Origin: a virus | Length of the DNA: 64,000 nt | Strand: one strand, 5' to 3' | Virus record (IMG/VR): IMGVR_UViG_3300030098_001779 | Span: 18,412 to 82,411 of that record | In this document: positions 41,106-61,888 of the stretch, piece by piece | How positions within the stretch are numbered: the first letter of the stretch is position 1 | Layout of the letters: every line of letters begins with the position of its first letter | Program-made: the position numbers and the translations under genes | The notes under the pieces: model-generated | Told to the model about the DNA's origin: nothing | The model's input: the letters and a program-made list of their open reading frames with translations, nothing else | The model's database searches: none

Positions 41106-42996
41106 GAAGGAGATCACATTGGTCACGCAATTAACACAACAAGCAGAAACAGTTGCATCAAGTCGATACTATTTAAAGGACGAAAACAACGAAGTTATTG
41201 AAACAGCAGATGATATGTTTGAACGAGTAGGTCAAGCAATCGCAAAAGTAGACATGGAACTCTATGGTAAGTTAGCTGCTGAAGCAGCACTAACAGCTGT
41301 AGATTTTACAGACATGATGAAGAAATTAAAATTTGTACCTAACTCTCCTACTTTAATGAACGCAGGGACTGAACAAGGAACTTTATCAGCATGTTTTGTA
41401 TTACCTCTAAAAGATAGCATGGAAGATATTATGAAGACTGCTCATGATATAGCCATGGTACAAAAGTTTGGGGGAGGAACAGGATTTGCTCTTAGTGAAT
41501 TAAGACCAAGAGGTGACCGAATAAAAACAACTCACGGTATTGCATGTGGTCCAATACAAGTATTACAAACACTATCTAGGGTATCATCTATGATTACCCA
41601 AGGTGGTAAAAGAGATGGTGCTAATATGGCAGTGATGTCAGTATACCATCCAGATATATTAGAATTTATTGACTGTAAAAAAGTTGAAGGTGAAATACAT
41701 AACTTTAACATATCAGTAGGGGTAGATGCAGACTTTATGAAAGCAGTACAAGCTAATCTTAAATACCCATTAATCAATCCAAAGAGTAAACAAGTAGTGG
41801 GTGAGTTAAATGCTAGAGAAGTATTTGATAAAATAGTATATGGAGCTTGGAGAAATGGTGAACCGGGCATGATATTCTTAGACAATGTAAACAAAGATAA
41901 TCATGTAAAAGCAGAATATGGCGAAATGATTGCTACAAACCCTTGTGGTGAACAACCTTTACTAGGAAATGAGTCATGTAATTTAGGTTCTATTAATTTA
42001 GCAAAGTTTTTTCATGAAGATTACAATGATGTTGATTGGAGAGAACTAGAAAAAACTGTTAAAAGTGCTGTACATTTCTTAGATAATGTGATAGATGCTA
42101 ACAAATATGCAACCCCTGAGATAGAAAAAATGACTAAATCTACAAGAAAAATAGGTTTAGGCGTAATGGGATTCGCAGATTTGCTAATTCAGCTAAAAAT
42201 TAAGTATAATAGTATAGAAGGGCGTAAATTAGGTAAAGATATTATGTCCTTTATAAGAGACAAAGCTGATGCAGAGTCTAAAAAAATAGCTAATGAAAGA
42301 GGTACTTTTCCTGCATGGAACGAAAGTGACTATGGAGAAGATGAAAAATACAGAAATGCTTGTAGATTAACAGTAGCTCCAACAGGAACTATCTCTATGT
42401 TAGCAGATACTTCTAGTGGTATAGAGCCTACATTTGCTCTAGCTTGGAAAAAGTCAAACATACTAGAAGGACAGACTTTGTATTATGTAAATAAATACTT
42501 TGAGGCAGATGCTAAAAGACATAACTTCTATTCAGAAGATTTGATGGAGCATTTATCTCAAGGCGGTTCTTTACAAACAAGAGAAGATGTGCCACCATGG
42601 GCGAAGGATATATACATCACTGCTCCTGAGATATCTGCTGAGGATCATGTAGAGATGCAAGCAGCTTTCCAAGAGGATTGTGATTCAGGTATATCAAAAA
42701 CAATTAACTTCCCTAATGAGGCAACTATCGCTGATGTTGAAGCTGCTTATGTACATGCTTGGAAGCTAGGTTGTAAAGGTATTACAGTCTACAGAGCTGG
42801 TAGCAGACAGATTGAAGTCTTGGTAAAAGGAACTGAAGAAAAAGAAGAAAACGATAGTACAGAACAAATGAGTTTCTTTGATATGGTTGAGACACCAGAA
42901 TCAACACCTGAGTGTTGTGAGTCTCCTAACATAGTTATGGAGTCTGGCTGTGAAACTTGTAAAGTCTGTGGATGGAGTATGTGCCATGTCGCTTAA
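41089..42996 (+). CDS. nrdJ: Ribonucleotide reductase class II, adenosylcobalamin-dependent (likely start TTG 41119)
   Basis: [52 protein letters not shown]-terminal C..CG.S.C; no small subunit nearby. Confidence 0.9.
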
Positions 42997-43219
42997 TAGA
43001 ACCTTTAGTATTTTTACTAATATAATAGAGAAAGCAAAAAAGAAAAAATCATCAGTTAATCAAGCTGGTAATTACACTAAACCTGCTATGAGAAAAAGGC
43101 AGTTCGCTGCTATCAAAGCTGGTAGTAAAGGTGGTGCTCCCGGACAATGGTCTGCTAGGAAAGCACAATTACTTGCACAAAGATATAAGAAAGCTGGTGG
43201 AGGATATAGGAAGAAATAA
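42950..43219 (+). CDS. Basic phage protein, DUF5872-like N-terminal part (likely start 42986)
   Basis: NYTKP..R....AGSKGG.PGQWSARKAQLLA..YKKAGGGY. Confidence 0.65.
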   Translation: MKLVKSVDGVCAMSLNRTFSIFTNIIEKAKKKKSSVNQAGNYTKPAMRKRQFAAIKAGSKGGAPGQWSARKAQLLAQRYKKAGGGYRKK

Positions 43220-43494
43220 TGGCTAAGACTGAAGGACAAAGATCTCTTAGCAGATGGACTGATCAAGATTGGGATTACGTTACTGCTAGAGATAAAAAGA
43301 AACCTAAAAGTAAAAGAGGTAGATATTTACCTAAAAAAGTACGTCAAGGTCTAACTGCGTCACAGAAAGCTGCTACTAATCGTAAGAAACGAAAAGCTGG
43401 TGGTGTAGGTAGTCGTGCTAAATATTCAAAAAAAGTAGCAAGTAGAGTTGGAGCAATTAGCAAACTCTTAAATTATGTAAAAGGACTCAGATAA
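43219..43494 (+). CDS. Basic phage protein, DUF5872-like C-terminal part
   Basis: Q.SL..WT.QDW...GRYLPKK...L...KAATNR.KR. Confidence 0.65.
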   Translation: MAKTEGQRSLSRWTDQDWDYVTARDKKKPKSKRGRYLPKKVRQGLTASQKAATNRKKRKAGGVGSRAKYSKKVASRVGAISKLLNYVKGLR

Positions 43495-43497
43495 TAC

Positions 43498-43527
43498 TTG
43501 ACAAAGCTACGTCAAATATGATATAAT
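43498..43527 (+). promoter_or_regulatory. Sigma70-type promoter TTGACA-N18-TATAAT with TTGAC-N8-GTCAA palindrome
   Basis: ttgacaaagctacgtcaaatatgatataat. Confidence 0.8.
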
Positions 43528-43558
43528 AGAGTAAAGTATAGAAAACAGGAGGTCAATT

Positions 43559-44011
43559 ATGGCTATTGGAAGTTTACTAAGAGACAGAGATATACAGTAT
43601 GTTGCAATCAAAGATGATGCAACTAAAACATGGAGAATATTAGATACATGGAGCCCAGCATTAAAGGATTTTGATTCTGAAGATGATATTCCAGATGATA
43701 GTGCTGCAGTATCTATTATAACAGAAGCTGCATTTATTGCATTGATTAAGGAAGCAACTCGTTTAGGTGTGTTAGAAAATGCTTCTTTAGGCGGTGGCGA
43801 AGTAAATGATGAAGATTTACTTGCATTAGAGCGTGAAAATCAAGAATTACACGAAAAACTGTCGAAAATGGAGCAAAATGTAGTAAAATATAAAGAGGAA
43901 CCAAAAAAACCTCAATACTCAGAAAATTATGCGATAAAGGATAGAGCTATTCAAGCTATTATAAATCTTGCAGGTATGGCTGATGTAGAAAAAATAAGTG
44001 AGGATAAATAA
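43559..44011 (+). CDS. Hypothetical protein
   Basis: AGGAGG RBS. Confidence 0.65.
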   Translation: MAIGSLLRDRDIQYVAIKDDATKTWRILDTWSPALKDFDSEDDIPDDSAAVSIITEAAFIALIKEATRLGVLENASLGGGEVNDEDLLALERENQELHEKLSKMEQNVVKYKEEPKKPQYSENYAIKDRAIQAIINLAGMADVEKISEDK

Positions 44012-44013
44012 TT

Positions 44014-45675
44014 ATGGCAAAACTATCAGAATTTCTTCCAGATGTTCCAGAGGTTGCTAAAACAATTGCTAGTTTAAACGAACAAATTAACATGTTGCAG
44101 TTGTCAAAAGCAGCAGGTGATACCGGACAAGCTCCGACTATCGGTCTTGATCATGTTGTAAACACATGGGTCAGACATCAGATGGCATATCGTCAACAAC
44201 TTGTAATGGATTTACAGACTATTACTTATTCTGTACAAGAAATACGAGGTCCGTTGACACATATCACAGGTGAAGTATTTAGACGTGGTATGAAGATAAA
44301 GCCTAAAGTAAAAGATCCTGATAAATCACAATTAGTAAGATTTAGTAAGTTCCTCACTGATTCAAACGTATTTGACCAAAGTCTTGAAGAAGTTTTAAGA
44401 CAATTTCACTATGATTTAAACTCTATTGATGATGCCTTTTTATATTTAGCAAAAGAATATGAAGAACTACCTAATGGTAAACTAGGTGCAAAAGTAAAAG
44501 AAATCAGAAGGTTGAACCCTGCATTAGTAGAATTTGACTTAGATGCAGCAGGTTTACCTAAAAATGCACATTTCTTATGTCCTATAGACAGGACTGATGT
44601 CGCTGAAGAACCGGGTACGTCTAAAAAAGGTTACAAGAGAATACCTGCAATGTATAAGTATTACCACAGAAACCAACACATGTACTTAGCAGATTCAGAA
44701 GTAATACATCTATCTAAGTTCTCACCATCTGAAACTTATGGATGGTCACCTATATTAACAGTATTTGAAAAAGCCTTAACACTTATAGGTATGGATAAAA
44801 ACTTATACCGATACTTCTTTGAAAGAAAGATGCCTGCTTCTATGATCATGGTAACTACTGATGATCCTGAAAGTTTAAGAAGGGAAAGAGCACATATAGC
44901 GGCTCAAACAAGACTTGACCCTAACTTTATACCTATGGTAGCAGTATCATCAAGAAACAATAGAGGTAGAGTTGACATGGTAAGATTGTTCCACACATTA
45001 CAAGAGATGGATTACTTACCAGTAAAACAAGAAATAAGAGAAAGAATTGCATCTATGTGGGGAGTATCTCCTACATGGCAAGGAACACCTGAAGCATTTG
45101 GTGGAATGTCAGCAACTACACAAAACTTAACAGTGATGAGTAGAGTGGTAGAATCAGATCAAAGACTATTCCATGAAAAAGTATTCCCAGAATTGTTAAA
45201 AGCGTTTGGTGTAACTGATTATGAAATAGAATTACCTAGACCTGAAGAAAAAGCAGATGCAACTATAATCTCTCACACTCAACAAAAAGTAGCTATGGCA
45301 AGTCAATTAAGTCAATTAGGATTCACTGTTGAATTAAAAGAGAAAAATGAAACTGACATGCTAGAGATTGACTTCGTAATAAGTGGTGAACCAGTTCCAA
45401 CTGCTAAGATGCAAGGTGAACAACAAGCTATGCAGTTAGAACAACAGCAACAACAGATTGAACAAGCTAAACAACAAGCTGAAATGGCTCAGATGCAAGC
45501 AGTTCTTCAAGAAGAATCTGAAGAGCCTACAGGCGAAGATGATGTTGAAAAGATGGAGAAAGGATATCCATTTAAAAACCTAGATGATTTCTTAGACTAT
45601 GATCCTGAAGAAAAATCAGAAGATGATGAGTATTCTCATATCGAAGAAGTCGATGATGAAGAACATGATGACTAG
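44014..45675 (+). CDS. Portal protein
   Basis: D....DDAFL, EVIH...YGWSPI, N..YFF....P, QEMDY....IA..WGV.P portal motifs; Q/E-rich tail. Confidence 0.85.
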   Translation: MAKLSEFLPDVPEVAKTIASLNEQINMLQLSKAAGDTGQAPTIGLDHVVNTWVRHQMAYRQQLVMDLQTITYSVQEIRGPLTHITGEVFRRGMKIKPKVKDPDKSQLVRFSKFLTDSNVFDQSLEEVLRQFHYDLNSIDDAFLYLAKEYEELPNGKLGAKVKEIRRLNPALVEFDLDAAGLPKNAHFLCPIDRTDVAEEPGTSKKGYKRIPAMYKYYHRNQHMYLADSEVIHLSKFSPSETYGWSPILTVFEKALTLIGMDKNLYRYFFERKMPASMIMVTTDDPESLRRERAHIAAQTRLDPNFIPMVAVSSRNNRGRVDMVRLFHTLQEMDYLPVKQEIRERIASMWGVSPTWQGTPEAFGGMSATTQNLTVMSRVVESDQRLFHEKVFPELLKAFGVTDYEIELPRPEEKADATIISHTQQKVAMASQLSQLGFTVELKEKNETDMLEIDFVISGEPVPTAKMQGEQQAMQLEQQQQQIEQAKQQAEMAQMQAVLQEESEEPTGEDDVEKMEKGYPFKNLDDFLDYDPEEKSEDDEYSHIEEVDDEEHDD

Positions 45676-45683
45676 GAGATAAG

Positions 45684-48600
45684 ATGACTTGGTTTGAAAA
45701 ACAAGGTAGAGAAGGTCTAGTTCCCAAGAAAATTACTGAAACTGTACGCCCAAAGCAAGGTCAAACTTACGAAAGACTAACTACAGTTTATGTAAAACCT
45801 GAAGTCCCTGAGTTCGTTAATGATTGGTTAAAGAACTTTGATTCGCAGGTTCCTGTATATTTAGTAGGTGGTTCTGTAAGAGACAGCATATTAGGTAAGG
45901 CTCCAAAAGATATAGATGTAATTACATTTAAACCTAAAGAAGATATAGAGACTAGATTAAAAACGTCTGATACTAAATTTTATCAAGGTGGTAAAAACTT
46001 ACCTAATTTAGTTACAGCTAATTTAGGCAATAATCAACTTATAGATATTATTAGTGTAGATGGTGATATAGAAAGTGAATTAGTTAGAAGAGATTTTACT
46101 ATAAATGCTATGGCACAAAGACCAGATGGTGAAATAATAGATCCTTTTGGTGGTAGAGAAGACTTAAAAAATGGTGTTTTAAAATCTCCAAAAGGTGATA
46201 GTGATAAAGTTTTTAGTGAAGACCCTATTAGAATGTTAAGAGCAGCTAGATTTATAGGAGATTTAAATCTTAAACCAGATAATTCATTAACAGATAGTTT
46301 GAAAAAACAAAAAGACTTACTAGCTGATATGCCGAAAGAAAGAATAGGTATGGAATTTGGTAGGATTATATACTCTAAAGATCCAGTATCTGCGTTAAAA
46401 TTCTTAAAAGAAAACGACTTATTAAAATATATTGATCCAGCTTTACAAAGAACAGTAGGTTTTGTACAAAATTTAGAGGGACATGATTATGATACTTGGA
46501 ATCATACACTAAAATCATTAGAGCATCATATAACTAAAGACAAAGATAAACCTGATCTAGCAACTAGACTAGGTATATTATATCACAATGTGGGAAAACC
46601 TCCTGCGTCAAATTCAAATAATAGTGATTTTAAAAACTATGAAAACATAGGAGCTCAGATTGTAGAGGAAAGTTTAAATAACTTACGTTTTCCATCTGAT
46701 ATAGTAGATGTTGTTAGAAAATTAGTTCAACATCACACATCACCTAGAACTGCAAAAACAGAAGGTGATCATAGAAGAGTACAACTTAAATTAAGAGAGA
46801 ACCTAAATAAACTTAACTTCGTAGCAACTGCTCATGAGGTAGGTAAAGAAGGTAATATAAATGCTGATACTGATCATATCGTATCTTTCCAAGACAGAAT
46901 TGATAAGCTAGATCCAATAGATGTTGAAAATGATAGAGTAAATTTATCTCCTCTAACTGGTAAAGAAATCATGGATGAGTTAGATATTGTGCCTAATAGA
47001 AAAGGTGGTGGTGAAAGAATAGGTAAGATAAAAGACTTTTTAAATCAACTTGTAATTGAAGGCGAGTTAAAACAATCAGATAAAAAAGGAGCTATCAACA
47101 GAGCTAGACAATATCATTCTACATTTACTCAAAAATCTAATAACGTATTAAAGAGCTGGTTAAATATCTTGAAGGCTGAAAAAGATGATGGTTTAAAATT
47201 TGATGCTGATAATAACATAAGTTGGGAAGTTGATAAAGTAGCTCATAGAGAAGCAATAGAAAAGAAACAAAGTGAATTATTTGATGGTAAAAGAAGAAAT
47301 TTAAAATTAGTCCCAAAAAAACTTAGAGATAAAAATGGTAAGGAAGTTACACGATGGTGTAGACCGGGTTGGGAAAATGTACCTCAATCTGAAGGTGGTA
47401 TGGTTACAGATCCTAACTCTATGTATTTCGGAAAGTTTCCCATATCCTCTCATGGACATGATCCTTTAGATCCTAAGTTTAGAGAAAAAAAAGTTAGATT
47501 ACCTCATGTAAATGATGATTTTGATAAACATAAAAACTTTACAGGACATACAGATGAAGAACTAGAACGTGCAAAAAAAGATGGTAATGCGTATAAATCG
47601 GTGCCAGCTAATGTTCATGAACTACATATAAGCCACGATCCGTTTGCTGAATTTCAACATAAAGCTAAAAATAAAGAGAAAGGTACTTTAAGTAGAACTC
47701 AAGGTCCGGGTTATACACATCCAGAAATTAAAGCATTAAAAGATGATCAAAAAGAATATAGAATAAAAGCATTAAGAAAACAGATGCCTTTATTAAATAA
47801 AGAGTTAGAGACTCAATATAACAGTGATAAACCTGATGTAAGAGCTTTAATGACAGGTATTATGATGGAAACAGGGCTTAGGATAGGAAATCCTGATGAT
47901 ACATTTAAGAGCATAAAAGACGCTAAAAAAGCAGAATCATATGCAACTTCTACATTTAAAAAGAAACATATATCAGTAACAGATGATACAATTAAATATA
48001 ATTTTCCGGGCAAAATGAAGACTATACAGTCTGGAACTATAAAAAATGCTGGATTAGCAAAAGGTTTAGAAACTATTTTAAAAAATAAAGAAGAAGATGA
48101 TTTTGTGTTTGAACAGAATGGTAAGTTTTATGATGAAGGTGCTGTTCAAAAATATCATAATGCAGTTATGAAAGTTAAACAGGGTTATGTAATTAAAAAT
48201 CATAGTTTTAGACATTCAAAAGCAACTAACATGACTATTAAAAACATTAGTGACTTTGTGTCTAAAGCAAAAGGTAGTCTAGGTTTTATAAAAACAGAAG
48301 GAGATTTTCAAGATTTTCAGAAACGAATGGCTACTGATGCAGCAAAACAATTAAATCATCCAGATAATAAGGCAGAGTTTTGGGATACAACTATGACTTT
48401 AGATTCGTACATCCTTCCAAATGTGTTTGGATATACTAAAGAAGGTAAGTATGTCTTATTAAAAGATGAGGTAGATAAAGAAAATACTCAACTTTCTTCT
48501 GACTATCAAAATAAAATGCAAGAATTAACAGGATCTAAGAAGTATAATAAAGTAGCTATACAAACTGTACAACTAGATAAAGCATATGATGGTAGAGAAT

Positions 48601-49001
48601 TTGATCCTACTAGAAAAAAAGAGAAAGACTTAGATACATATGGTGAAAACAGGAAAGATAAAGCCGAAGATAGAGACTTAGGATTAGACAAGATACCTCC
48701 ACATATGAGACCAAGACCTAAATATTACGAAGCTAAATTTGCAAAAACATGGATAGAGGATTTAGCTGATAAAGGTTATCAGTCTCCTATGGTAAAAAGT
48801 TCCAATGGTGATGGAACTAAGATATGGTTTATAGATGGAGGAATAGATTATGTAGCAGATGTTGGAGCAACTGGAGTAAGGCATGTTGAGAAGGCAACTT
48901 TTAGACCACTAGCATCTAATGCAACTAATACAATAAGTTATGATCCAACAGGTAATAACATGAGGGAGCCTGATGATAATGAGGAGGAACTCTATGAGTG
49001 A
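45684..49001 (+). CDS. Fusion: class II tRNA nucleotidyltransferase (probably CC-adding, degenerate HD domain) + type IB DNA topoisomerase + C-terminal domain
   Basis: VGGSVRD, DIDV, RRDFTINAMA, DPFGG.EDL, EDPIRMLRAARF, ERI..E; then ETGLRIGN, YATST..KKH, FPGK, HSFRH, LNH, SYI. Confidence 0.85.
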   Translation: MTWFEKQGREGLVPKKITETVRPKQGQTYERLTTVYVKPEVPEFVNDWLKNFDSQVPVYLVGGSVRDSILGKAPKDIDVITFKPKEDIETRLKTSDTKFYQGGKNLPNLVTANLGNNQLIDIISVDGDIESELVRRDFTINAMAQRPDGEIIDPFGGREDLKNGVLKSPKGDSDKVFSEDPIRMLRAARFIGDLNLKPDNSLTDSLKKQKDLLADMPKERIGMEFGRIIYSKDPVSALKFLKENDLLKYIDPALQRTVGFVQNLEGHDYDTWNHTLKSLEHHITKDKDKPDLATRLGILYHNVGKPPASNSNNSDFKNYENIGAQIVEESLNNLRFPSDIVDVVRKLVQHHTSPRTAKTEGDHRRVQLKLRENLNKLNFVATAHEVGKEGNINADTDHIVSFQDRIDKLDPIDVENDRVNLSPLTGKEIMDELDIVPNRKGGGERIGKIKDFLNQLVIEGELKQSDKKGAINRARQYHSTFTQKSNNVLKSWLNILKAEKDDGLKFDADNNISWEVDKVAHREAIEKKQSELFDGKRRNLKLVPKKLRDKNGKEVTRWCRPGWENVPQSEGGMVTDPNSMYFGKFPISSHGHDPLDPKFREKKVRLPHVNDDFDKHKNFTGHTDEELERAKKDGNAYKSVPANVHELHISHDPFAEFQHKAKNKEKGTLSRTQGPGYTHPEIKALKDDQKEYRIKALRKQMPLLNKELETQYNSDKPDVRALMTGIMMETGLRIGNPDDTFKSIKDAKKAESYATSTFKKKHISVTDDTIKYNFPGKMKTIQSGTIKNAGLAKGLETILKNKEEDDFVFEQNGKFYDEGAVQKYHNAVMKVKQGYVIKNHSFRHSKATNMTIKNISDFVSKAKGSLGFIKTEGDFQDFQKRMATDAAKQLNHPDNKAEFWDTTMTLDSYILPNVFGYTKEGKYVLLKDEVDKENTQLSSDYQNKMQELTGSKKYNKVAIQTVQLDKAYDGREFDPTRKKEKDLDTYGENRKDKAEDRDLGLDKIPPHMRPRPKYYEAKFAKTWIEDLADKGYQSPMVKSSNGDGTKIWFIDGGIDYVADVGATGVRHVEKATFRPLASNATNTISYDPTGNNMREPDDNEEELYE

Positions 49002-50265
49002 TAATATGTACTTAAATATACTTAAACAAAAGTATAAAGGTAAAAGAATTAAAAGTCCAAAAGGTGGATTAACAGCTGCTGGGCGTAAATATTTTAAAAG
49101 AAAAGAAGGTGCTAATCTCAAACCGGGTGTAAAAGGAAAAGCAAATACACCTGAAAAGAAAAGAAGGAAAGGTAGCTTTCTTACTAGATTCTATACTAAC
49201 CCTAGAGGTCCAATGAAGGATAAGAAAGGGCGACCAACAAGATTAGCTTTGGCAGCTAGAGCTTGGGGTGAAGCTGCACCTAGTACAAGACAACAAGCTC
49301 AAAAACTAGCAGCTAAAGGTAGAAGAATGTTGGATAGATATCAAGCATCTAAAAAAACTAAAAAAGCCATATTTAAAGAAGGTGGTGGAGCTGGTGGCGG
49401 CGGTGGAGCTGCTACTTCAGGAGGTTTTGGAAGTGGTGGTGGAACTGTATTCACATCTACTAACTCAGGTATTTTTACTCCTACTTATGGTGGCGGAGGC
49501 TATAAAAGAAGAAAGAATCATATTAGAGAGATAAAAAGAAAGAAGGATAAAAGAAGTGGTATAGAAAGATTATCTAGATTTCTTAGAGAATATACCCCTG
49601 AAAAGAAATCTATAAATGCTACAAAAGAACTAACAGAATTAATTAAATCTGTGACTAAATCACAATATCCTGCTGGTAGAGGGTATGGTGGTAATTTAGG
49701 CATGAAAGTTTTAGATTGGAAAAAACCTAATACAGATGAAGAACCTCCTAAAGTTTCTGAATTTAAAGGAAAAAAACAAGATGAAGATAATAATGATGCA
49801 GTTATTGAGCAGAATTATATGGAACAAAAGATCAAAAATTTAAAGGATGAATCTAGAAAAGAAGGTAGAGATCAAGCTACTGAAGATGAAGTTGTATCTG
49901 CTGCGAATCCGGGATTAGTTACGTTAAAATCTTATTCAAGTGGTGCAACAAGTAGTTTATCACCTACAATGAGAGAGACTAATCCATACAAACGTAGTGG
50001 AGATAAAGATAAAGTTGATGACAATCCAGAAATAGCGAAAGATAAATTAACAGATCTTATAGATAAATTTCTAGATATAGAAAAATATAGTGGTTATAGT
50101 GCCGCAACTACACAAACTACTCTACCAGAAAGAGAGATTCTAGAAGATAAAAAACAAGAGATACAAGTTTTAGATGATGACGATGTAGAGGATCAGGAAG
50201 TCCAACCTCCTAAAGGTCAGAAAAAAACTTATTCAACCGGAGACGGTGGTGGATATAGCATGTAA
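48973..50265 (+). CDS. Basic/acidic low-complexity protein with DUF6321-like N-terminus (likely start 48994); putative internal head protein
   Basis: K.PKGGLTAAGRKYFKRKEGANLKPGV...RRKGSFL.RF; Gly-rich segment; hydrophobic-x-K motifs. Confidence 0.6.
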   Translation: MIMRRNSMSDNMYLNILKQKYKGKRIKSPKGGLTAAGRKYFKRKEGANLKPGVKGKANTPEKKRRKGSFLTRFYTNPRGPMKDKKGRPTRLALAARAWGEAAPSTRQQAQKLAAKGRRMLDRYQASKKTKKAIFKEGGGAGGGGGAATSGGFGSGGGTVFTSTNSGIFTPTYGGGGYKRRKNHIREIKRKKDKRSGIERLSRFLREYTPEKKSINATKELTELIKSVTKSQYPAGRGYGGNLGMKVLDWKKPNTDEEPPKVSEFKGKKQDEDNNDAVIEQNYMEQKIKNLKDESRKEGRDQATEDEVVSAANPGLVTLKSYSSGATSSLSPTMRETNPYKRSGDKDKVDDNPEIAKDKLTDLIDKFLDIEKYSGYSAATTQTTLPEREILEDKKQEIQVLDDDDVEDQEVQPPKGQKKTYSTGDGGGYSM

Positions 50266-51597: not shown

Positions 51598-51599
51598 AC

Positions 51600-53267: not shown

Positions 53268-54626
53268 ATGAAAATTAGAATACCAAAGCCAAAGATCAAA
53301 TTACCTAGCTTTAGATTGCCAAAACCTAAAGTAAAAGTACCGAGTGTTGTACAAAAAACAGCAAGTGCGACACTAATGACGTTTACTTTCTTGGCAATAC
53401 TGTTAGGAGTAACAGGAATAACACTAACTACAGTTAATCCTGTGAATTTATGGTGGGATATCGCACCAATACAGATAGCATACTTTAATTATGTTATCAC
53501 ATATACTGCAGTAATGAATTACTTAGAGTTCTTGCAGACATGGTATTGGTATTCTGTAGGTATATCAACAGGACTTGTAGTCGCAGGACTAGCTGTACAT
53601 ATTAGAAGTTTAAAACAACTATTTAATATACTAAAAGCTACTCCTATGGCTATATTAAAGTCACCCCTTTACATTTATCAAGATGTAAAAGCGTTTAGAG
53701 ATTGGCTATTTAACAAAATAGAATATTTAAATGGAGAATCAGCTAAGTGGAGAAGGTTCTTCAAAGTAATGAAGTCACCATATTCTCTGTTAAGAGGTAT
53801 GGGATTAAATCCACAAATGGCGGTTGGTCTATTAGTCGCAGGTGGTACAGCTACAACAGCAGTTGCAGTAAATGAGATCGTAGTAGAAAGAAGTTTTGCT
53901 AACGGATCACCGGGTATTTACGCAGCTCCATCTGAATATCCAAGCGAAACATTAGAGAAAGAAATGGCGTGGAGAAAAGATAATCCAGACGACAACACGT
54001 TAAGGATTGTACTTGGAACTACACCAGTAGAAGAAATAAACATCTCTAACGTATCAATTGGTACTGCATATACAGGTTCAACATTACCATCAGGTAAAGC
54101 TGAAGCCATTTTGATTGAGGGGAAAGCAGGAACAACAGCAAGACTAGAGATAGGACAGCTATTGTTTGAAAGAAATACATGTAAGACATTAACATTATCA
54201 GATGTAAATGCCCACAAGATCATAGTTAAAGAAAATATTGCTGATGGATTAAGTATATCACAGACTCTTACAAGTACATTAAGAAACTTAAGAGTATCAG
54301 GTGGTAACTTTATGGCAGATCTACTACAGACTGAAGGTGGTACTTATGACCGAATTTGGTTGGACACTGGTAGTTTAACAAATACTAACGCTAAGATTAA
54401 CAAGTTAGTTCTAAGTAACATAGTATCATCAGGTGGTACATGTGTAATTAGACAAGCTGATATCGGTGAGTTAACAATTCAATTCTCACAGATTGGACAT
54501 GACAGTAACTTAGCAACAAAGGAATTTACTATACAATCTAGCACACTAGCTAGCATATGGGAAGTTAACAATAACTATGAAGTATTGTTATCAGAACCTA
54601 GCCCACCGGGAGGCGTTAGCCCATAG
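53268..54626 (+). CDS. Membrane protein with extracellular beta-rich domain
   Basis: Several hydrophobic segments in the N-terminal half; beta-strand-rich C-terminal half. Confidence 0.6.
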   Translation: MKIRIPKPKIKLPSFRLPKPKVKVPSVVQKTASATLMTFTFLAILLGVTGITLTTVNPVNLWWDIAPIQIAYFNYVITYTAVMNYLEFLQTWYWYSVGISTGLVVAGLAVHIRSLKQLFNILKATPMAILKSPLYIYQDVKAFRDWLFNKIEYLNGESAKWRRFFKVMKSPYSLLRGMGLNPQMAVGLLVAGGTATTAVAVNEIVVERSFANGSPGIYAAPSEYPSETLEKEMAWRKDNPDDNTLRIVLGTTPVEEINISNVSIGTAYTGSTLPSGKAEAILIEGKAGTTARLEIGQLLFERNTCKTLTLSDVNAHKIIVKENIADGLSISQTLTSTLRNLRVSGGNFMADLLQTEGGTYDRIWLDTGSLTNTNAKINKLVLSNIVSSGGTCVIRQADIGELTIQFSQIGHDSNLATKEFTIQSSTLASIWEVNNNYEVLLSEPSPPGGVSP

Positions 54627-54632
54627 AAAACA

Positions 54633-54869: not shown

Positions 54870-54890
54870 CAAAACGGAGGAACTTAACTA

Positions 54891-55043: not shown

Positions 55044-55056
55044 AAAGGAGATTCGC

Positions 55057-55481: not shown

Positions 55482-55519
55482 AATAGAAAAATTTACCATA
55501 AAAAGAGGTATAATAATTC

Positions 55520-56134
55520 ATGGAAGACGAAATTCTAGAGATAGTTCAAGAACTGGGAGAAGAAGTATTTGAAGAATCTCAAAGACTATGCCCAGAAGGT
55601 TCTGGTTGGCTAAAACGTAGTGGTCAATTAATACCTAATATGGGCGGCTTTGAAATTATATATGAAGCTCCTCATGCTAGATTAATACATGATGGTAAAG
55701 AGCAAGAAGATCAGTATTATGAAATGAAAGTAAAAGAATTTCAAAGAAGAAATAGAAATAGAAAAGGAGCTTTATCTTTCGTAATAGATACGAAAGGAAT
55801 ACAGACAGGTAATCCTGAAAGGCAAAAGCCTAGACAAGGAACATATAGTGATCTAAAGTCACTTTTAAATATAAAGAAACAATCTAATACACATAAAGTA
55901 AAAGCACATACAAAGAAATACTTTGGGCGTAGACCAAGATTAAATACGGAAACTGGTAAGTGGAGCATTGTAAACACTACAGCAAAAGCTCCCGAACCTT
56001 TTATTGATGATGCTTATAGCAAAGTAATAAGAAGAAAAAAGTATAGAGATATTAGTAGAGACTTAGGAATCACCTTTCCAAAGAAGTTGGGAAGGGGAAG
56101 ACAGGAGATTCTAAGAAGATTTTTATCGATTTAA
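55520..56134 (+). CDS. HK97 gp10-like neck / tail-completion protein
   Basis: SQ.LCP..SG.LKRSG...I.Y.APHA..IHDG...PF...A. Confidence 0.6.
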   Translation: MEDEILEIVQELGEEVFEESQRLCPEGSGWLKRSGQLIPNMGGFEIIYEAPHARLIHDGKEQEDQYYEMKVKEFQRRNRNRKGALSFVIDTKGIQTGNPERQKPRQGTYSDLKSLLNIKKQSNTHKVKAHTKKYFGRRPRLNTETGKWSIVNTTAKAPEPFIDDAYSKVIRRKKYRDISRDLGITFPKKLGRGRQEILRRFLSI

Positions 56135-56145
56135 AGGAGGCTAAA

Positions 56146-56361
56146 ATGGTAGACGTAAGTAAAGTTACAGCTGAACAAGAATACATTATTGCCAGACATT
56201 CTAGGATGATTGGTAAAGTATTAGATTTAGTTGAAGCATCTATGCCAGAGGGAAACCAACTCGAAAAGCTAAAGAAACTAATTCAAGTTCCACTATATGA
56301 CTACAGGAATGAGATGTTGAAGATGGCTAATGGTGAACTCGTAGAAGATTCAAATGAATAA
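56146..56361 (+). CDS. Hypothetical protein
   Basis: AGGAGG RBS. Confidence 0.6.
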   Translation: MVDVSKVTAEQEYIIARHSRMIGKVLDLVEASMPEGNQLEKLKKLIQVPLYDYRNEMLKMANGELVEDSNE

Positions 56362-56395
56362 ATTATAAATTATTTTATAATATTCGTAATATTTA

Positions 56396-56425
56396 TGTAA
56401 AAAATGCCTTTATTTATAGTATAAT
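56396..56425 (+). promoter_or_regulatory. Putative late promoter TGTAA-N17-AGTATAAT for the scaffold/capsid operon
   Basis: Motif in an AT-rich intergenic region. Confidence 0.5.
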
Positions 56426-56570
56426 ATTACAGGATAGGCGAATAGTGCCTATTTTTATATTATAATTCTATAGAGGTCGGGGGTGGCTAAGACCAACCTT
56501 GAGAATTAATAAACTTTTAACTTAATTTTTAGTCTGGAATGAGACTGGAAAGGACATAGGAGGTCGAAAG

Positions 56571-57488
56571 ATGTCAGAAGAATTCACAAATTTAGAGAAT
56601 CACATGCAAGGTACTAACCTAGCATTATCTGCAGTAGCAGAAGTTCTCGCTAAAATGGACGAAAGACTCACAAAAGAAGAAGAAGACGACAGAATGGAAG
56701 AAGAAGAGAAGGCTTTAGAAGCTGAAAAATCAGAATTAGTAAAAGCAGTCGCATCTGAAGTGGTATCAATGATCAAAGCCGAAGGCGGAGAGAACCCACT
56801 AGGAATGGATGTTGACGGAGCTAAAGAAAGGAAAGCTAAAACAATAACGCAACCTCAATTTGATGATGCTCAAAATGCAGCTAACCCGACTACTAACATC
56901 GAAGATCAACAAGCTACAATACAGGCTGCTGATATGGAAGATGACGATGACAAAGAGAAAGCTATGACTAGAGCTATGCGAAAAGATCATGTACCGGGAC
57001 ACGACTCGGATGATGACAAAGAGAAAGCTATGAAAGAAAAAGCTATGAAAGCTGCTGGTATGACCAGAAAAGCTGATGAAGATGACGATGACAACGGGTC
57101 TGATGAAAAACCTGTTGACAAAGTTTCTATGAAAGCAGATGAAGATGACGAAGATGATGACGGAATGAAGGCAATGAGAAAAGAACTCGATGCTTTGAGA
57201 AAAACTGTTGCAGCTTACGAAGCTAACATGGAGAAAGCCGTTGAAGAACAGTCTGAAGCAAGACTGCGAAAGATGGGCTTTAGAGAAGAGAATGGTTTAC
57301 AAAGACCAGCTCTACTTAACCAAGACGCGTTAGGAACAGATGGAACTACTCCAATTGTAAAAGGTAACGCAACAAGTGGTGATGTGGTAGAAGACCTAAG
57401 TGGTTTGTCTTACAAACAACTAAGGGACTTACAACACAAGATAGATCAAGGTGACACTTCAGGTGTGCCAAGAGAACTACTTGGATAA
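56571..57488 (+). CDS. Capsid scaffolding protein
   Basis: Acidic, helical, directly upstream of the major capsid gene; many x-x-KA sites. Confidence 0.7.
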   Translation: MSEEFTNLENHMQGTNLALSAVAEVLAKMDERLTKEEEDDRMEEEEKALEAEKSELVKAVASEVVSMIKAEGGENPLGMDVDGAKERKAKTITQPQFDDAQNAANPTTNIEDQQATIQAADMEDDDDKEKAMTRAMRKDHVPGHDSDDDKEKAMKEKAMKAAGMTRKADEDDDDNGSDEKPVDKVSMKADEDDEDDDGMKAMRKELDALRKTVAAYEANMEKAVEEQSEARLRKMGFREENGLQRPALLNQDALGTDGTTPIVKGNATSGDVVEDLSGLSYKQLRDLQHKIDQGDTSGVPRELLG

Positions 57489-57526
57489 TAATAAATAATT
57501 TTTGAAAGAACGAGGAGAAATTAATT

Positions 57527-58894
57527 ATGGCTACAAATCCATCATTATCTGAGTATATTGCTCAGTCTCAAAGAGGTCTATACTCGTCTGTATTCGGACC
57601 AGAATACTTACAGAAACAGACTTACTTTACAGTGGACACTGCCACAGGTATTTTTAACACTACCTATGGTAGAAAAGTTTGGCATGCATTAAACAACCAA
57701 ACTCGTTTCTTCAATGCAATCCCAAGAACTGTTTGGGGTAACACAGCTGGTTGGAGAATCAGGACAGACAGAGGTAGTGGAAGATCACGACCTGTGACTG
57801 AGACTGGTGCTCTACCTACAGTTGATGTTTCAGACATCGCAAACGTAGCTAGTTTACCTAGAATCGTTTCAACTACTTTCGGTGCTTCAGTGAAATCAGT
57901 ATTCACTGCACAATTAGAAGGTGGTGTTGGTGATGTTCTTGCATTGGAAAACGAAAACGCACAGCTCGACCACGTTAAAGAAATGAACGAAGAGCTATTA
58001 GCAGGATCAGGATATGTTGTATCCGCTGGTTCAACTACTTCAGGTACTGTACCAGCATCAGTTGCTAAGAACATTAAGGTAGGTGACAAGATTGCTTACT
58101 TCGATACATCTGCAAACGACTACATTGACACATCTGGACTAACAGTTTCAGCAGTAAACACATCTACGGGTGCTATTACTCACGGAACTGCATCGCAAAC
58201 TATTGCTGACGGTGACGGTCTTATCGTTGTAGAAAGAGCAGGACTAACGTCTATTGATGACGTAGTACAATTTGATGGTGCACCAGTAGGTGGATCATTC
58301 GACACAAACGCAAACTTCGCAGCAAACGGTGGAGTAAGGGCGTATGACTTAACATTCGGTGACAGACCTTCCGGACAATGGAACGCTGCTGCTACAGTTA
58401 AGCACAACAGTGGAGTAGGTAGGGAACTATCTCTAAACTTAATTGATGACTGTATTCAATCAGTAAGAAACAATGGTGGAGAACCAAAACTAATCGTTAT
58501 GGGACACGACCAATACTTCAAGCTAGAAAGATTACTACAATCACAACAGAGATACTTAGGACAGGAAGAGTACCAAGTTGGTGTAGGTTCTGAAAGAACT
58601 TTCCCGGGTACAAGAACTGGTCTAGTTCTCGCTACTTACCAAGGTATTCCAATTCTACCAGATGCTGACACACCAAAAGGTGTAGCAACAGATGACTCAG
58701 TATTGGGTTCAAACGTATATGTTTTGGACACAGACTACCTTGAAATAGCTGTGGCACAACCAACACAGTATATAGAAAACAGAGACTACTTCGCAGCTAA
58801 TGCTCTAGTAGTAAGAGGTTTACTATACACTATGGCAGAAATGCGATGTCACAACTTCTTCACACAAGCTAAGATTACTGACTTAAACGCGTAG
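57527..58894 (+). CDS. Major capsid protein (HK97 fold)
   Basis: YGRKVW..LN, GWR.R, E.G.LP, GG.PK.I, Y.GIPI.P, VY.LDTDYL; high-expression codon bias; followed by a terminator. Confidence 0.85.
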   Translation: MATNPSLSEYIAQSQRGLYSSVFGPEYLQKQTYFTVDTATGIFNTTYGRKVWHALNNQTRFFNAIPRTVWGNTAGWRIRTDRGSGRSRPVTETGALPTVDVSDIANVASLPRIVSTTFGASVKSVFTAQLEGGVGDVLALENENAQLDHVKEMNEELLAGSGYVVSAGSTTSGTVPASVAKNIKVGDKIAYFDTSANDYIDTSGLTVSAVNTSTGAITHGTASQTIADGDGLIVVERAGLTSIDDVVQFDGAPVGGSFDTNANFAANGGVRAYDLTFGDRPSGQWNAAATVKHNSGVGRELSLNLIDDCIQSVRNNGGEPKLIVMGHDQYFKLERLLQSQQRYLGQEEYQVGVGSERTFPGTRTGLVLATYQGIPILPDADTPKGVATDDSVLGSNVYVLDTDYLEIAVAQPTQYIENRDYFAANALVVRGLLYTMAEMRCHNFFTQAKITDLNA

Positions 58895-58917
58895 TCTAAC
58901 TTGGAAAGAACATTTTG

Positions 58918-58950
58918 ATGGGTTGGGGAGCTAGTCTCCCCACCCATTTT
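58918..58950 (+). terminator. Intrinsic terminator after the major capsid gene
   Basis: ATGGG-T-TGGGGAG/CTCCCCA-CCCAT stem followed by T-run. Confidence 0.75.
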
Positions 58951-58970
58951 ATAAAAGGAGAAATTAAATT

Positions 58971-59294
58971 ATGGCAATTACAATCACAAATCCCGGATCA
59001 TCCTCTCCTGTAGTTGGTGTTCCCGGAAACGTAAAGTATGTAATTAAAGATATTACTTTCGATGACTCTTATCCAACTGGTGGTGAAGGACTTTCTGCTA
59101 CTCAATTAGGATTAGAGGAAGTATACATTGTTCTTATTTCACAAAAGTCTGACGGTTATGTAGTACAATATGACTACAGTAACGAAAAGTTAGAGATTTA
59201 TGAAGCAGGTGCAGATGGTGCTGCATTAGACGAACTCGGTGACACAGCAGATGCTAGTGGTATCGGAATCAGACTAATCGCTTACGGAAAATAA
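58971..59294 (+). CDS. Head decoration / minor capsid protein
   Basis: ITFD.SYPTGGE.L....LGL...GYV..YD....KL..Y; directly after the capsid gene. Confidence 0.65.
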   Translation: MAITITNPGSSSPVVGVPGNVKYVIKDITFDDSYPTGGEGLSATQLGLEEVYIVLISQKSDGYVVQYDYSNEKLEIYEAGADGAALDELGDTADASGIGIRLIAYGK

Positions 59295-59410
59295 ATAATA
59301 TATAAAGAGCTGCCTATATTATATTTGGTGGTATCATCATATAGTTATAAGCTATATGGGCAGCTTCTTAGATATCCTGATAGATTAGGATAGATTTAAA
59401 GGAGAATTAA

Positions 59411-60439
59411 ATGGCAGGATTCACAAACAGCTACTCAAATTCATGGGAATGGAAAGAGTGGAATACTGATCCCAGCACTCGTACCTCAGTTGCACCACTA
59501 GATAGATATGTGGCTCTTAGTGGGTCAGTAGGAACAACAGCCGCAGATGCAGTAAATATTTACGCTGGTCCATATTATAATTTGGATCAAGGAAACACAT
59601 CTGCTAACTTAGAATTAGCTACGACTGGTTCACCGGGAATAAATAGAATATTAAATCCATCAATAGAGAACTCAACTATAACAGAATTTACAGCAGATGG
59701 ATCAGCTATATCAAGAACAACTGGAGCACCTTTCTTAGGGTCAGCAGAACTAACAGTAAACCCAGCGAACTCTGCAGCCAAAGAAGGTTTTTATGTAACT
59801 ACAGATTCTATAGGAGCAGGAGCAGCGGGTGATACATCAGGAAACACCCCGACTTATATTATAGCATCTGGAATGGTAAGAGGAGCATCAGCATCAGGAG
59901 ATGCAGTAATGCAGATTACAGATTCAAGTGGGACTGTATTAGCTACAGGTACAGCAGTTAGTTTAACAACTAGCTACCAAACAATAAAGGTAGCTTATAA
60001 TATACCAGCTGGAACTACACCAGCAACATACAGAGTTAAATGGTGTTCAAGTACGCAACACAACATTAACATGTTATTTGATGCACTTATGTATGACATT
60101 AGACATGATTCACATGTACCAGATTACATAGATGGAAACCTAGCAGGTGGTAATACTTATGAATGGGAAGGCACAGTAGACCTTTCTAGGTCAAGACATA
60201 TCTCACCTATAGGTGTAATAAGACACGTTAAGATTAAAAACACACATGGTTCACAGAATCTGTTCGTTGCATTTGATGCTACAGCAGAAGCCTCTGCTAC
60301 TTGTTTAAAATTAGCGGCAGGTGAATCATTTGAGACAAGCCACCCAATAGATTTTAGGAAGAATATTTCAGTGATCGGTAGTGGCTCATCAACAACTTTT
60401 GAAGGAATAGTATTTGGAATACATACTCCAATAGGATAA
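59411..60439 (+). CDS. Virion structural protein with carbohydrate-binding-like insert
   Basis: N.ILNPS.E...YIDG...YEW.GT...S.S pattern; C-terminus paralogous to 3847..4167. Confidence 0.55.
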   Translation: MAGFTNSYSNSWEWKEWNTDPSTRTSVAPLDRYVALSGSVGTTAADAVNIYAGPYYNLDQGNTSANLELATTGSPGINRILNPSIENSTITEFTADGSAISRTTGAPFLGSAELTVNPANSAAKEGFYVTTDSIGAGAAGDTSGNTPTYIIASGMVRGASASGDAVMQITDSSGTVLATGTAVSLTTSYQTIKVAYNIPAGTTPATYRVKWCSSTQHNINMLFDALMYDIRHDSHVPDYIDGNLAGGNTYEWEGTVDLSRSRHISPIGVIRHVKIKNTHGSQNLFVAFDATAEASATCLKLAAGESFETSHPIDFRKNISVIGSGSSTTFEGIVFGIHTPIG

Positions 60440-60443
60440 AATT

Positions 60444-61703
60444 ATGACTACAATGACTGCAGAAAAAATAGTAAATACTAACAGAGACATGTTTCAGAGT
60501 GTTTCTGAGGATGCAACCATCTCTTTATTGGAAAAGGCAGAAGGTGGGAAAGTAACAGTTAAGGACATCACTAATGCATTAGATGAATTTAAAAGACTGT
60601 ATAAAGCTGGAATAGCATCACCTGCAGAAATTATGACATTACACCGAGCTTTCCCAGATAATGAAGTTTATCAAAAGGAAGCAAGGAAGCTGGAAAAACG
60701 AGAAATCGAACCAGTAGTATTAGGAGGTCCCGCCTCTGTTGAATTAGTAGACAGAGAGGGACACCTGATCACAACAGATGCTCTAGGAAGGGCATTTGAA
60801 AACTACATGAAAAGTTTTAGAACTAGGAACGCTATGGTTCTACACTCTGATGTCCAAGTAGGTTGGGCTTTACCAGCTTACATCAATAAGTCTGGACAGA
60901 TATTTAAGAGTGGTGTAAATGAAAATGGTCTATTCTTTATTACTGAAATGAGAAATGATACAAAGATCTCTGACAGAGTAAAGGAACAGATAAACGAAGG
61001 AAAGCTAAAGTCTTATTCTATTGCTGGATCAGCAACTAAGATGCAGAATATGACTAAAGGCTTACAATCTTACATGCAAGTAGATGACTTGGAACTCGCT
61101 GAAGTAACAGTATGTGAAAAGGGAGTGAATCAAGGAGCATCTTTTGACTTATTAAAATCAGAACAACCAGCACAGAAATCATGTGCTGATGGAAGCTGTC
61201 TAACAAAGTCAGCTCCTGAACCAAGAGAGGAAATTAATATGGTATGGAAATCAAATGGAAACGTAGACTTCACCCAGACTTTCTTTAATTGGCTTTCAAA
61301 AGAGAATGGGAAAGCAACTGATCCTTTAGTAGGAGATAAAATGTTTGCTGTTCTTGAAAACTTCAGAGGAAGGGAAAAGGAACACCACAACCAGTTAGAT
61401 AGACAAGGCTTTCCAAAGGAACTAGATCCTGAATTTGCTAGAGTAACACCAGTAATGGAAAACCCTAAATACTTTCCATGGGTTGTAGGAGAAGCAGGTT
61501 CTAAACTTGGACCAAAGAGGTATCAAGGCGGATCGCTACCAGTAACAAAAGCCTTCTTAGAGTGGATGGAAAAGAGAGATAAAGGAGATGCCTTTGCTAT
61601 CGCTACTGCTCAAGCTAAAAAGGAAGGCTTCAAAGACTTTTCTGAAGGAAGCGAAGGAAGGGAAAAAAGGAACGAACTAGCTGAAAAATTAAAGGAAAGC
61701 TAG
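60444..61703 (+). CDS. Prohead maturation protease (HK97/XkdF-like) with long extensions
   Basis: G.ASVELVDREG..I, MVLH...VG, I..G.LKSYSIAG, L.L.EVTVCE.G.N..A.F. Confidence 0.85.
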   Translation: MTTMTAEKIVNTNRDMFQSVSEDATISLLEKAEGGKVTVKDITNALDEFKRLYKAGIASPAEIMTLHRAFPDNEVYQKEARKLEKREIEPVVLGGPASVELVDREGHLITTDALGRAFENYMKSFRTRNAMVLHSDVQVGWALPAYINKSGQIFKSGVNENGLFFITEMRNDTKISDRVKEQINEGKLKSYSIAGSATKMQNMTKGLQSYMQVDDLELAEVTVCEKGVNQGASFDLLKSEQPAQKSCADGSCLTKSAPEPREEINMVWKSNGNVDFTQTFFNWLSKENGKATDPLVGDKMFAVLENFRGREKEHHNQLDRQGFPKELDPEFARVTPVMENPKYFPWVVGEAGSKLGPKRYQGGSLPVTKAFLEWMEKRDKGDAFAIATAQAKKEGFKDFSEGSEGREKRNELAEKLKES

Positions 61704-61711
61704 GAAAGGAG

Positions 61712-61888
61712 ATGTCATCTTACTACGACATCTTAAAAACTCTTTTTCTTAAAGATGGAGCAGAAACTGTTATCTATGAAATCAAAACGAATAAAAGGAA
61801 ACCAAGAACTACTGGGAAGAAGAATATAGGGATTGGAAGGGGAAGCTATTCCAGAGGAAACAAGAGAACACGCTATGGCACTTATTAA
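61712..61888 (+). CDS. Small basic protein (not in the ORF track)
   Basis: MSSYYDILKTLFLKDGAETVIYEIKTNKRKPRTTGKKNIGIGRGSYSRGNKRTRYGTY; AAAGGAG just upstream. Confidence 0.45.
   Translation: MSSYYDILKTLFLKDGAETVIYEIKTNKRKPRTTGKKNIGIGRGSYSRGNKRTRYGTY

Follow-up and report, generated by a model that had tools for sequence, protein, structure and literature searches.

A candidate lysine-directed S78 prohead protease and a proposed portal-derived carrier domain for predicted enzyme cargo in an uncultured marine phage

Head module and conserved hydrophobic-x-Lys sites

The window analysed here is a stretch of 64,000 nucleotides, bases 18412-82411 of an 82.4-kb viral contig (IMG/VR record IMGVR_UViG_3300030098_001779), whose head module combines a predicted S78 prohead protease with structural proteins, small basic proteins and a 1105-residue protein containing two predicted enzymes and a portal-like C-terminus. 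An earlier note on this DNA had proposed that one recurring amphipathic helix ending in Lys loads many otherwise unrelated proteins into the prohead and is then removed by the protease. Gene layout was assigned by Pfam and PHROGs; all plausible genes of the window lie on the + strand, and orthologue alignments were drawn from 98 related contigs. Among cultured viruses the relatives are distant, the major capsid protein (MCP) matching haloarchaeal tailed viruses only, at 27-32% identity, whereas marine relatives number in the hundreds in IMG/VR.

The module opens with the basic open reading frames (ORFs) 42986 and 43219, the portal gene (44014), the 1105-residue PolyA_pol/HD protein (45684) and a basic DUF6321 protein (48973). 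A Bmp lipoprotein, an exonuclease and membrane proteins follow, and the module closes with a minor head protein (55520), an acidic scaffold-like protein (56571), the SU10-type MCP (57527), the S78 protease (60444) and a 58-residue basic ORF (61712). The proteins and sites bearing on maturation are listed below, an arrow marking each candidate cut.

44107..44109, + strand: portal site K32, LSK↓A/S, kept in 65 orthologues
56571..57488, + strand: scaffold-like acidic protein, its scaffold role proposed from position and composition; candidate sites K58 (56742-56744, LVK↓A/S) and K264 (57360-57362, IVK↓G/A/S)
57527..58894, + strand: MCP of SU10 type (PF17236, E = 7.7e-11, match from residue 47); candidate maturation site K30 (57614-57616, YLQK↓Q), kept in 17/17 orthologues down to 67% identity
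60444..61703, + strand: predicted prohead protease, S78 domain at residues ~75-238 (60666-61157); conserved candidate self-cleavage sites K31 (60534-60536, LEK↓A) and K238 (61155-61157, LLK↓S)

The protease scores 22.7 bits with PF04586, for which the curated threshold is 21 (E = 1.2e-4, residues 158-238), and it also matches phrog_23555, 'head maturation protease', with E = 4.2e-13. Residues H107, H134, S135, S190, S192 and S196 are invariant in 19 orthologues, and a search of PDB gave no sequence match. Its 180-residue tail carries two conserved F-x-x-x-F-x-x-[WFY] helices (61263-61304 and 61539-61577), which look more like docking helices than cut sites.

Conserved sites were defined as hydrophobic-x-Lys (Φ-x-K) with the Lys and the P3 residue kept in at least 90% of sequences. 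A site of this kind is kept ~30 residues into MCP, portal and protease alike, and both scaffold sites are retained in 25/25 orthologues down to 40% identity, with poorly conserved flanks. K30 is the one Φ-x-K-[AQSGT] match in the MCP, which contains 2.6% Lys; the other tabulated head and replication proteins contain ~6-19%. So low a Lys content would be in keeping with selection against sites in the mature shell that the protease could cut.

These Φ-x-K sites before a small residue, conserved within poorly conserved surroundings, are exactly the ones that the earlier note had listed as known protease substrates; they are strictly conserved, down to 40-67% identity, and their standing is comparative rather than experimental. 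The cleavage after Lys that it proposed is backed by the comparison, in which the sites are invariant, fall on domain borders and recur upstream of the portal C-terminal domain. The most parsimonious reading is a Lys-directed S78 maturation protease, given that the sites are conserved, K30 is the sole MCP match, PF04586 is matched and the His and Ser residues are invariant.

A portal-derived C-terminal domain on the 1105-residue protein

44014..45675, + strand: portal core, weak PF04860 match, shorter than in most relatives; linker site K516 (45559-45561, MEK↓G) retained and followed by a non-conserved acidic tail
45684..49001, + strand: 1105-residue candidate cargo protein (Pfam, PHROGs), divided as follows
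45684-47174, residues 1-497: predicted CCA-adding/HD enzyme
47145-47177, residues 488-498: 'tag' helix of the earlier note, ending at border site K497 (47172-47174)
47721-48458, residues ~680-925: predicted type IB topoisomerase (TopoIB), separated from the tag helix by a hypervariable linker
48579-48581: border site K966, LDK↓A
48582-48998, residues 967-1105: portal C-terminal domain (C-domain)

The 1105-residue protein is matched by PF01743 (E = 1.8e-18), PF12627 and PF01966. A profile built from seven orthologues retrieved CCA-adding enzymes from PDB (E = 1.7e-31) and, for the second enzyme, TopoIB 6z01 (E = 1.4e-6) together with 2f4q, 2h7f and 1a41, the Deinococcus, variola and vaccinia enzymes. 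The TopoIB pentad (R733, K777, R843, H892, Y909) is invariant, and relatives reach the Pfam Topoisom_I threshold. On these matches, with head domain, RNA-binding and HD regions represented, the N-terminal module is assigned to the class II CCA-adding enzyme/poly(A) polymerase superfamily and the second predicted enzyme to the type IB topoisomerases.

The C-terminus was traced to the portal. In diverged relatives the portal ORF spans 650-673 residues, of which the final ~100 correspond to residues ~979-1102 of the 1105-residue protein; the C-terminal ~140 residues of the latter are 31-45% identical to the C-termini of intact portals in 43 loci. By this comparison, the last ~140 residues are the portal's own C-terminal domain, an assignment that is new here, and they form the best conserved part of the fusion protein. 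The AGGAG ribosome-binding site of the cargo ORF overlaps the TAG stop codon of the portal, and the cargo ORF is therefore a polypeptide separate from the portal core.

Only two conserved Φ-x-K sites of the fusion protein fall on steps in conservation, namely K497, at the end of both the tag helix and the conserved CCA module, and K966, at the start of the C-domain. Within the helix, L489, K490, W492, L493, L496 and K497 are invariant in orthologues. The peptide at 47145 is thus best read as a helix end that would supply a border cut site; as a loading tag it would be unneeded, because the protein carries a portal-derived domain.

The predicted core of the C-domain comprises one helix and a four-stranded meander. 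A full-length AlphaFold model of the 1105-residue protein had a mean predicted local distance difference test (pLDDT) score of 46.5, too poor for a fold search, and was set aside. Near the end of the C-domain, a '[VI]-x-K-A-x-F' segment at K1070 (48891-48893) is invariant in 24/24 sequences of the alignment, with a variable acidic tail behind it, and may represent another cut site or simply a beta-strand. An exact 'LVPKK' repeat stands ahead of each enzyme domain (45714-45731 and 47304-47321), which local alignment did not rate as significant, and related 'LPPNA[VI]YS..E.PP' segments stand ahead of domains in loci L054, L055 and L035.

Architectures among relatives

The arrangement of portal core, enzyme modules and C-domain varies among related loci, each pair of square brackets below enclosing one ORF.

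Portal core and C-domain in one ORF: 43 loci
[core] [CCA + TopoIB + C-domain], the window type: 9 loci
[core] [TopoIB + CCA + C-domain], with the domain order reversed: L055/L057
[core] [TopoIB + C-domain]: L061 and the L045 group
[core] [692-residue cargo + C-domain]: L046

In a tree of portal cores, the window type forms one clade with support 100/100. Other cargo-bearing forms lie elsewhere among the intact-portal lineages, and well-supported branches require at least three changes. Locus L079, considered as a further independent split, was dropped as it resembles a frameshifted intact portal. Intact portals have a Φ-x-K-[A/S] site immediately before the C-domain, and so do all cargo forms but L061, which has 'EAISS' at that place; truncated portal ORFs still carry the site near their end, now with an acidic, non-conserved tail behind it.

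Locus L055 encodes (11692-15207) a 1172-residue post-portal protein with TopoIB, a CCA-adding enzyme with HD domain and the portal C-domain, and its TopoIB/CCA junction is marked by an amphipathic helix ending 'LSK↓T'. Wherever TopoIB occurs, it occupies the post-portal slot and is carried by one of two conserved modules. The second carrier-like module is the C-terminal half of the 48973 family, which occurs with TopoIB (L035:11922-13997), with a PAP2 phosphatase (L028:12874-14511; L080:10632-12863), with HNH (L080) and with a domain bearing an HExxH motif (L054:2152-4578). A literature search on links between portal and TopoIB returned nothing usable.

Leaders of the small basic proteins

941..2443, + strand: very basic protein of 500 residues, isoelectric point (pI) 10.3; leader ending LKK↓A (K12, 974-976) and internal LLNILKE (1670-1696)
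42986..43219, + strand: basic protein, phrog_17747; 16-residue hydrophobic leader (42986-43033) ending IEK↓A
43219..43494, + strand: basic 91-residue protein, phrog_14910; C-terminal helix 43456-43485, a weak tag candidate
48973..50265, + strand: basic modular protein; leader ending ILK↓Q (K18, 49024-49026), DUF6321 at 49051-49266 (PF19846, E = 1e-29) and a conserved C-terminal half (residues ~158-370, 49444-50082)
61712..61888, + strand: basic protein of 58 residues, pI 10.2, directly after the protease; N-terminal YYDILK↓TLFLK↓D

Both the 42986 family and DUF6321 have members in cultured marine podophages. The leader of the 42986 protein is kept down to 52% identity. Its homologue HTVC033P gp42 starts 'MAKSKSTVNKAGNY', and the protein of the window reads 'NIIEK↓AKKKKSSVNQAGNY', so that the first residue of gp42 corresponds to the one that would follow the cut. 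In a broader sample from IMG/VR, ~50/65 classifiable members of phrog_17747 have no leader at their start, and 16/17 long contigs with a leaderless copy lack an S78 protease; four cultured isolate genomes were checked for an S78 match, with none found (0/4). The 48973 protein gives a similar picture in an unrelated family, as the T7-like homologues HTVC168P gp31 ('MPAKKYQSPSGGL') and S-TIP37 gp27 ('MGKHKSRKGGL') begin just past the proposed cut in 'YLNILK↓QKYKGKRIKSPKGGL'; both genes sit between those for scaffold and MCP.

For these two basic proteins, the comparison supports leaders that are removable add-ons, since homologues in S78-less phages start at the would-be cut. The comparison is suggestive of a lineage that placed a hydrophobic leader ending in a cut motif before the natural N-terminus in two unrelated families.

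The remaining basic proteins are weaker instances. The N-terminal 27 residues of the 941 protein and its internal copy of the motif are kept in the one relative found, G001 (59% identity), with W7->L and a two-residue insertion; no other homologues were found in IMG/VR by pattern, or in cultured phages. The 61712 leader is kept at 67% identity. In the 43219 protein the C-terminal helix occurs in close relatives only, its Lys is not conserved and the helix is gone at 50% identity; likewise, the Lys of 'LTELIKS', an internal peptide of the 48973 protein, is not conserved in orthologues. A short N-terminal candidate propeptide ending in the proposed protease motif is present in 42986, 48973, 941 and 61712, and not in 45684, whose tag is internal, or in 43219, whose helix is C-terminal. 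At L065:9025-9507, homologues of 42986 and 43219 are fused in one 161-residue ORF without the 43219 C-terminal helix.

Recurrence of the quoted peptides

All peptides quoted in the earlier note are in frame at the positions given there: residues 488-498 of the 45684 ORF, the N-terminus of the 42950/42986 ORF, the C-terminus of the 43219 ORF, residues 12-19 of the 48973 ORF, 4-15 of the 61712 ORF, 3-13 and 244-252 of the 941 ORF, and 276-287 and 367-378 in the protease tail. The peptides are thus real, whereas their reading as one recurring motif did not rise above chance in any of seven tests chosen so as not to start from that peptide list.

Exact 5-mers shared by at least three proteins numbered 10, mostly among tail-fibre paralogues, against 2.7 in shuffles; among exact shared 4-6-mers, LNILK, found in three proteins, lay within shuffle expectation. 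An all-against-all 11-mer BLOSUM62 scan gave 46 pairs scoring at least 35, with 48-72 in eight shuffles and hence no excess; the best tag pair (941 N-terminus and 45684 residue 488) scored 35 against shuffle maxima of 41-45. Recurrence of 8-mer seeds was headed by poly-Gly and poly-Asp/Glu words rather than by the tag. With one mismatch, LNILK had 7 neighbour proteins against 12 for the top seeds. LLNILK with at most one mismatch reached 5 proteins, a tied top value that 25% of shuffles also attained, and ELIDEL, ALEDKK and AKKAES likewise recurred in 5 proteins as 6-mers with one mismatch. In cross-retrieval, just two pairs were reciprocal best hits, the 941 N-terminus with 45684 residue 488 and the two protease tail helices with each other; out of 24,429 windows, the other tags came anywhere between 2nd and >4000th, most ranks being in the tens to thousands.

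Comparison with replication proteins gave the same result. Against a control set of PolA, DnaB, NrdJ, RecA, TerL and the exonuclease, the density of Φ-x-K-[AQSGT] in cargo and head proteins was 1.22 versus 0.89 per 100 residues (Fisher p = 0.20), and an amphipathic-plus-Lys pattern, itself built from the tag instances, occurred 8 versus 2 times (p = 0.20). An N-terminal Φ-Φ-(x)-K is present in 39/121 proteins, PolA, RecA and the exonuclease included, and N-terminal 4-mers, exact or in a reduced alphabet, recur no more often than those in randomly placed windows. The post hoc pattern [DN]ILK was seen 7 times against 1.2 expected, with 6/7 in late or head proteins, and loosens to Φ-Φ-K in orthologues.

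A single amphipathic tag as the loading signal of all listed proteins is consequently unsupported, the loose motif being equally frequent in PolA, DnaB and NrdJ, an outcome that the earlier note itself had named as refuting it; nor is the Lys conserved in every instance, as it is not kept in the 43219 C-terminus, in 'LTELIKS' or in the first protease tail helix. What the better instances appear to have in common is a helix end supplying a Φ-x-K cut site, not one recognisable motif.

A 'helix + basic + xP[WYF]A[VIL]ATA' module common to the 941 N-terminus and the protease tail was considered and rejected, its alignment scores of 30-40 lying below the shuffled 95th percentile of 45. The core [WYF]-A-[VIL]-[AC]-T has just two copies in the proteome (956-1021, 'NPWAVATA' in the 941 N-terminus; 61578-61601, 'DAFAIATA' in the protease tail), each ~10 residues past a tag-like helix; locus L097 has 'SPYALATA', and alignment statistics do not rate the resemblance as significant. 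The peptides most similar to either tag class, absent from the earlier note, occur in a 452-residue protein with two hydrophobic membrane-type segments (53268-54626), as 'LFNILKA' (residues 114-124, 53607-53639) and 'KAFRDWLFNK' (residues 140-150, 53685-53717). They are not kept in its orthologues, where the conserved part is 'K-A-x-P' only. This protein could be a membrane-inserting ejection protein or a member of a lysis cluster.

Surrounding genome

Outside the head module, the window (GC content 33-39%) carries the following blocks.

18450 (tube-like protein) and 22573 (fibre with S74 chaperone), + strand: late/tail block
29194 (DnaB), 32212 (PolA) and 35638 (RecA), + strand: replication block
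39438 (TerL) and 41089 (class II ribonucleotide reductase), + strand

The ~200 bases at the end of the contig (82200-82411) recur near its start (1-210) with small differences, consistent with a complete genome that is circularly permuted or terminally redundant.

Discussion

From the sequences, their conservation and the domain architectures, we infer cleavage, packaging and ejection along the following lines, in a scheme to which we give an even chance of being correct as a whole. The S78 prohead protease would cut hydrophobic-x-Lys before Ala, Ser, Gly or Gln, a site that sets off the first ~30 residues in capsid protein, portal and protease, is present at two places in the scaffold and lies at each of the two domain borders in the 1105-residue protein. 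The C-terminus of a portal faces the capsid interior, and large enzymes would enter the prohead through fusion to the portal-derived C-domain; the protease would then cut at K497 and K966, freeing the CCA enzyme and TopoIB to leave with the DNA. The leaders of the basic proteins (42986, 48973 and probably 941 and 61712) would act like the capsid-targeting propeptides of T4. This keeps the Lys cleavage and the removable leaders of the earlier interpretation as plausible and gives up its common loading tag, and for the large enzymes a route through the portal C-terminal domain is better supported by the comparisons than one through the tag. The evidential weight is carried by conservation at domain borders and by the leaderless homologues.

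A more far-reaching version, which we advance tentatively and hold to be somewhat doubtful, is that the C-domain is a detachable docking module, a universal anchor for interchangeable enzymes on the inner face of the portal. Cut free at the Lys sites, such enzymes would be the first proteins out with the DNA and could mend the 3' ends of tRNAs and relax the genome as it enters.

Some features of the scheme recall known systems. In T4, 10-residue targeting propeptides (capsid-targeting sequences, CTSs) on the basic internal proteins IPI-III and on Alt are removed by gp21 (PMC9026906). The present leaders are likewise short N-terminal candidate propeptides on small basic proteins of or near the head module and end in the proposed cut motif of the protease, which protease, capsid protein and scaffold also bear. 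Here too the leader is an add-on to the predicted mature domain, given leaderless homologues that start at the predicted mature N-terminus; its targeting role is a prediction. Unlike T4, in which an S77 protease cuts after Glu ([LI]-x-E) and the CTSs are near-identical to one another, the window has an S78 protease with predicted Lys specificity, and its leaders are no more alike than shuffled or random windows.

Iyer et al. (2017) described polyvalent proteins and predicted portal/MuF-effector fusions (PMC5512222). As in the systems presented in the sections of that paper drawn on here, a multi-enzyme protein lies beside the portal gene and is linked to a portal-derived domain, with predicted packaging and delivery alongside DNA, and the effector content is swappable, as seen in CCA + TopoIB, TopoIB + CCA and TopoIB before the C-domain, and in TopoIB, PAP2 and HNH on the 48973 C-terminal half. 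In contrast to the fusions in those sections, the cargo here is joined only to a detached portal C-terminus of ~140 residues on a polypeptide separate from the portal core, it consists of a predicted CCA-adding enzyme and TopoIB, and protease-type sites flank each module. Other large enzymes, the Dar antirestriction proteins of P1 and the virion RNA polymerase of N4, are packaged in the capsid and ejected (PMC9024508, PMC13434306). Delivery of capsid-borne large enzymes at infection is the common element, proposed here from genes alone, whereas the enzymes and the incorporation routes given in the portions of those two sources used here are different ones.

The nearest match for the protease itself is HK97 gp4, which belongs to the same Pfam family (Peptidase_S78). 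The HK97 protease reportedly cuts gp5 after Lys103 (K103↓S104), to which the predicted Lys cut corresponds, and in both proteins the tail at the C-terminus could plausibly serve for docking. HK97 is not known to have a separate scaffold or an enzyme cargo; in the window, by contrast, the protease gene follows the MCP gene and the 180-residue tail holds two repeated helices. Set against T4 CTS processing and the portal/MuF-fused effectors, which it otherwise resembles, the locus differs in protease family and predicted specificity, in its dissimilar leaders, in the proposed use of a detached portal C-domain as carrier and in the combination of CCA and TopoIB cargo.

Several points weigh against the proposed scheme. 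The Φ-x-K motif is short and common, at ~1 per 100 residues and in replication enzymes as well, a Lys conserved in a helix can have structural reasons, and our literature search found no source that states where S78 proteases cut. That the C-domain binds portal or capsid is an assumption, the cargo not being covalently joined to the portal core, and the model of the C-domain, whose core has pLDDT 82-91, gave no informative match in fold searches (Foldseek E ≥ 0.065; VIA Z ≤ 5.3). The association of leaders with the protease amounts to one evolutionary gain per family, which makes it suggestive rather than statistical, and one 173-kb genome, IMGVR_UViG_3300021958_000023 (locus L135), combines a leaderless phrog_17747 copy with an S78 protease within a 918-residue open frame.

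Three other explanations were weighed. That the quoted peptides are ordinary amphipathic helix ends without a common role, and the conserved Lys residues structural, in the Lys/Ile/Leu/Asn-rich proteome of an AT-rich phage agrees with the GC content, with motif statistics that all stand at chance and with the equal recurrence of other helix words such as ELIDEL and ALEDKK. Such an account is nevertheless unlikely in our estimation, as it leaves unexplained why conserved Φ-x-K sites before small residues lie exactly on domain and conservation borders, why two unrelated basic domains have leaders added precisely before their natural N-termini and why MCP, portal and protease share a site ~30 residues from the N-terminus. 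The loading of all listed proteins by a single Lys-ending helix that the protease removes, as the earlier note had it, draws on the two reciprocal best-hit pairs, on the [DN]ILK excess and its bias towards late and head proteins, on LLNILK-like words in five head or late proteins and on the add-on character of the leaders. However, no unbiased test placed the tag above chance and the tags fail to retrieve each other; the motif is as dense in PolA, DnaB and NrdJ and occurs at nearly a third of N-termini (39/121), its instances are scattered over N-termini, C-termini and internal positions, in three the Lys is not conserved, and the look-alike in the 53268 membrane protein is not kept in orthologues, all of which makes such a tag quite improbable.

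It could also be that the sites are cut while the enzymes are no cargo, the 1105-residue protein being a cytoplasmic polyprotein, its C-domain a leftover of gene insertion and the leaders serving, for example, to keep nucleic-acid-binding domains inactive until processed. Separate translation of the cargo ORF from the portal core is compatible with this, as are a C-domain fold without known precedent for portal binding and the capacity of CCA-adding enzymes and TopoIB to act in the cytoplasm late in infection. Yet S78 proteases are, as far as is known, active inside proheads, TopoIB always occupies the post-portal slot on either of two conserved modules, and the C-domain, conserved better than any other part of the fusion, has been retained after different cargos in several lineages, a pattern that speaks for a selected function; cytoplasmic processing is accordingly a reading that we think has little likelihood. 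Prohead cleavage after Lys with a portal-derived carrier domain remains the reading we prefer, at the even chance given above.

The comparison also carries a caution, in that short amphipathic 'tags' spotted by eye in AT-rich proteomes are no evidence by themselves. If the proposed scheme is true, abundant uncultured marine phages would deliver a tRNA-repair enzyme and a topoisomerase to the host together with their DNA, by means of a Lys-specific, S78-based counterpart of the Glu-specific T4/phiKZ systems. A portal domain of 140 residues and a three-residue cut site would then make up a compact natural handle for cargo loading, and the post-portal slot would be explained as a hot spot of enzyme swapping.

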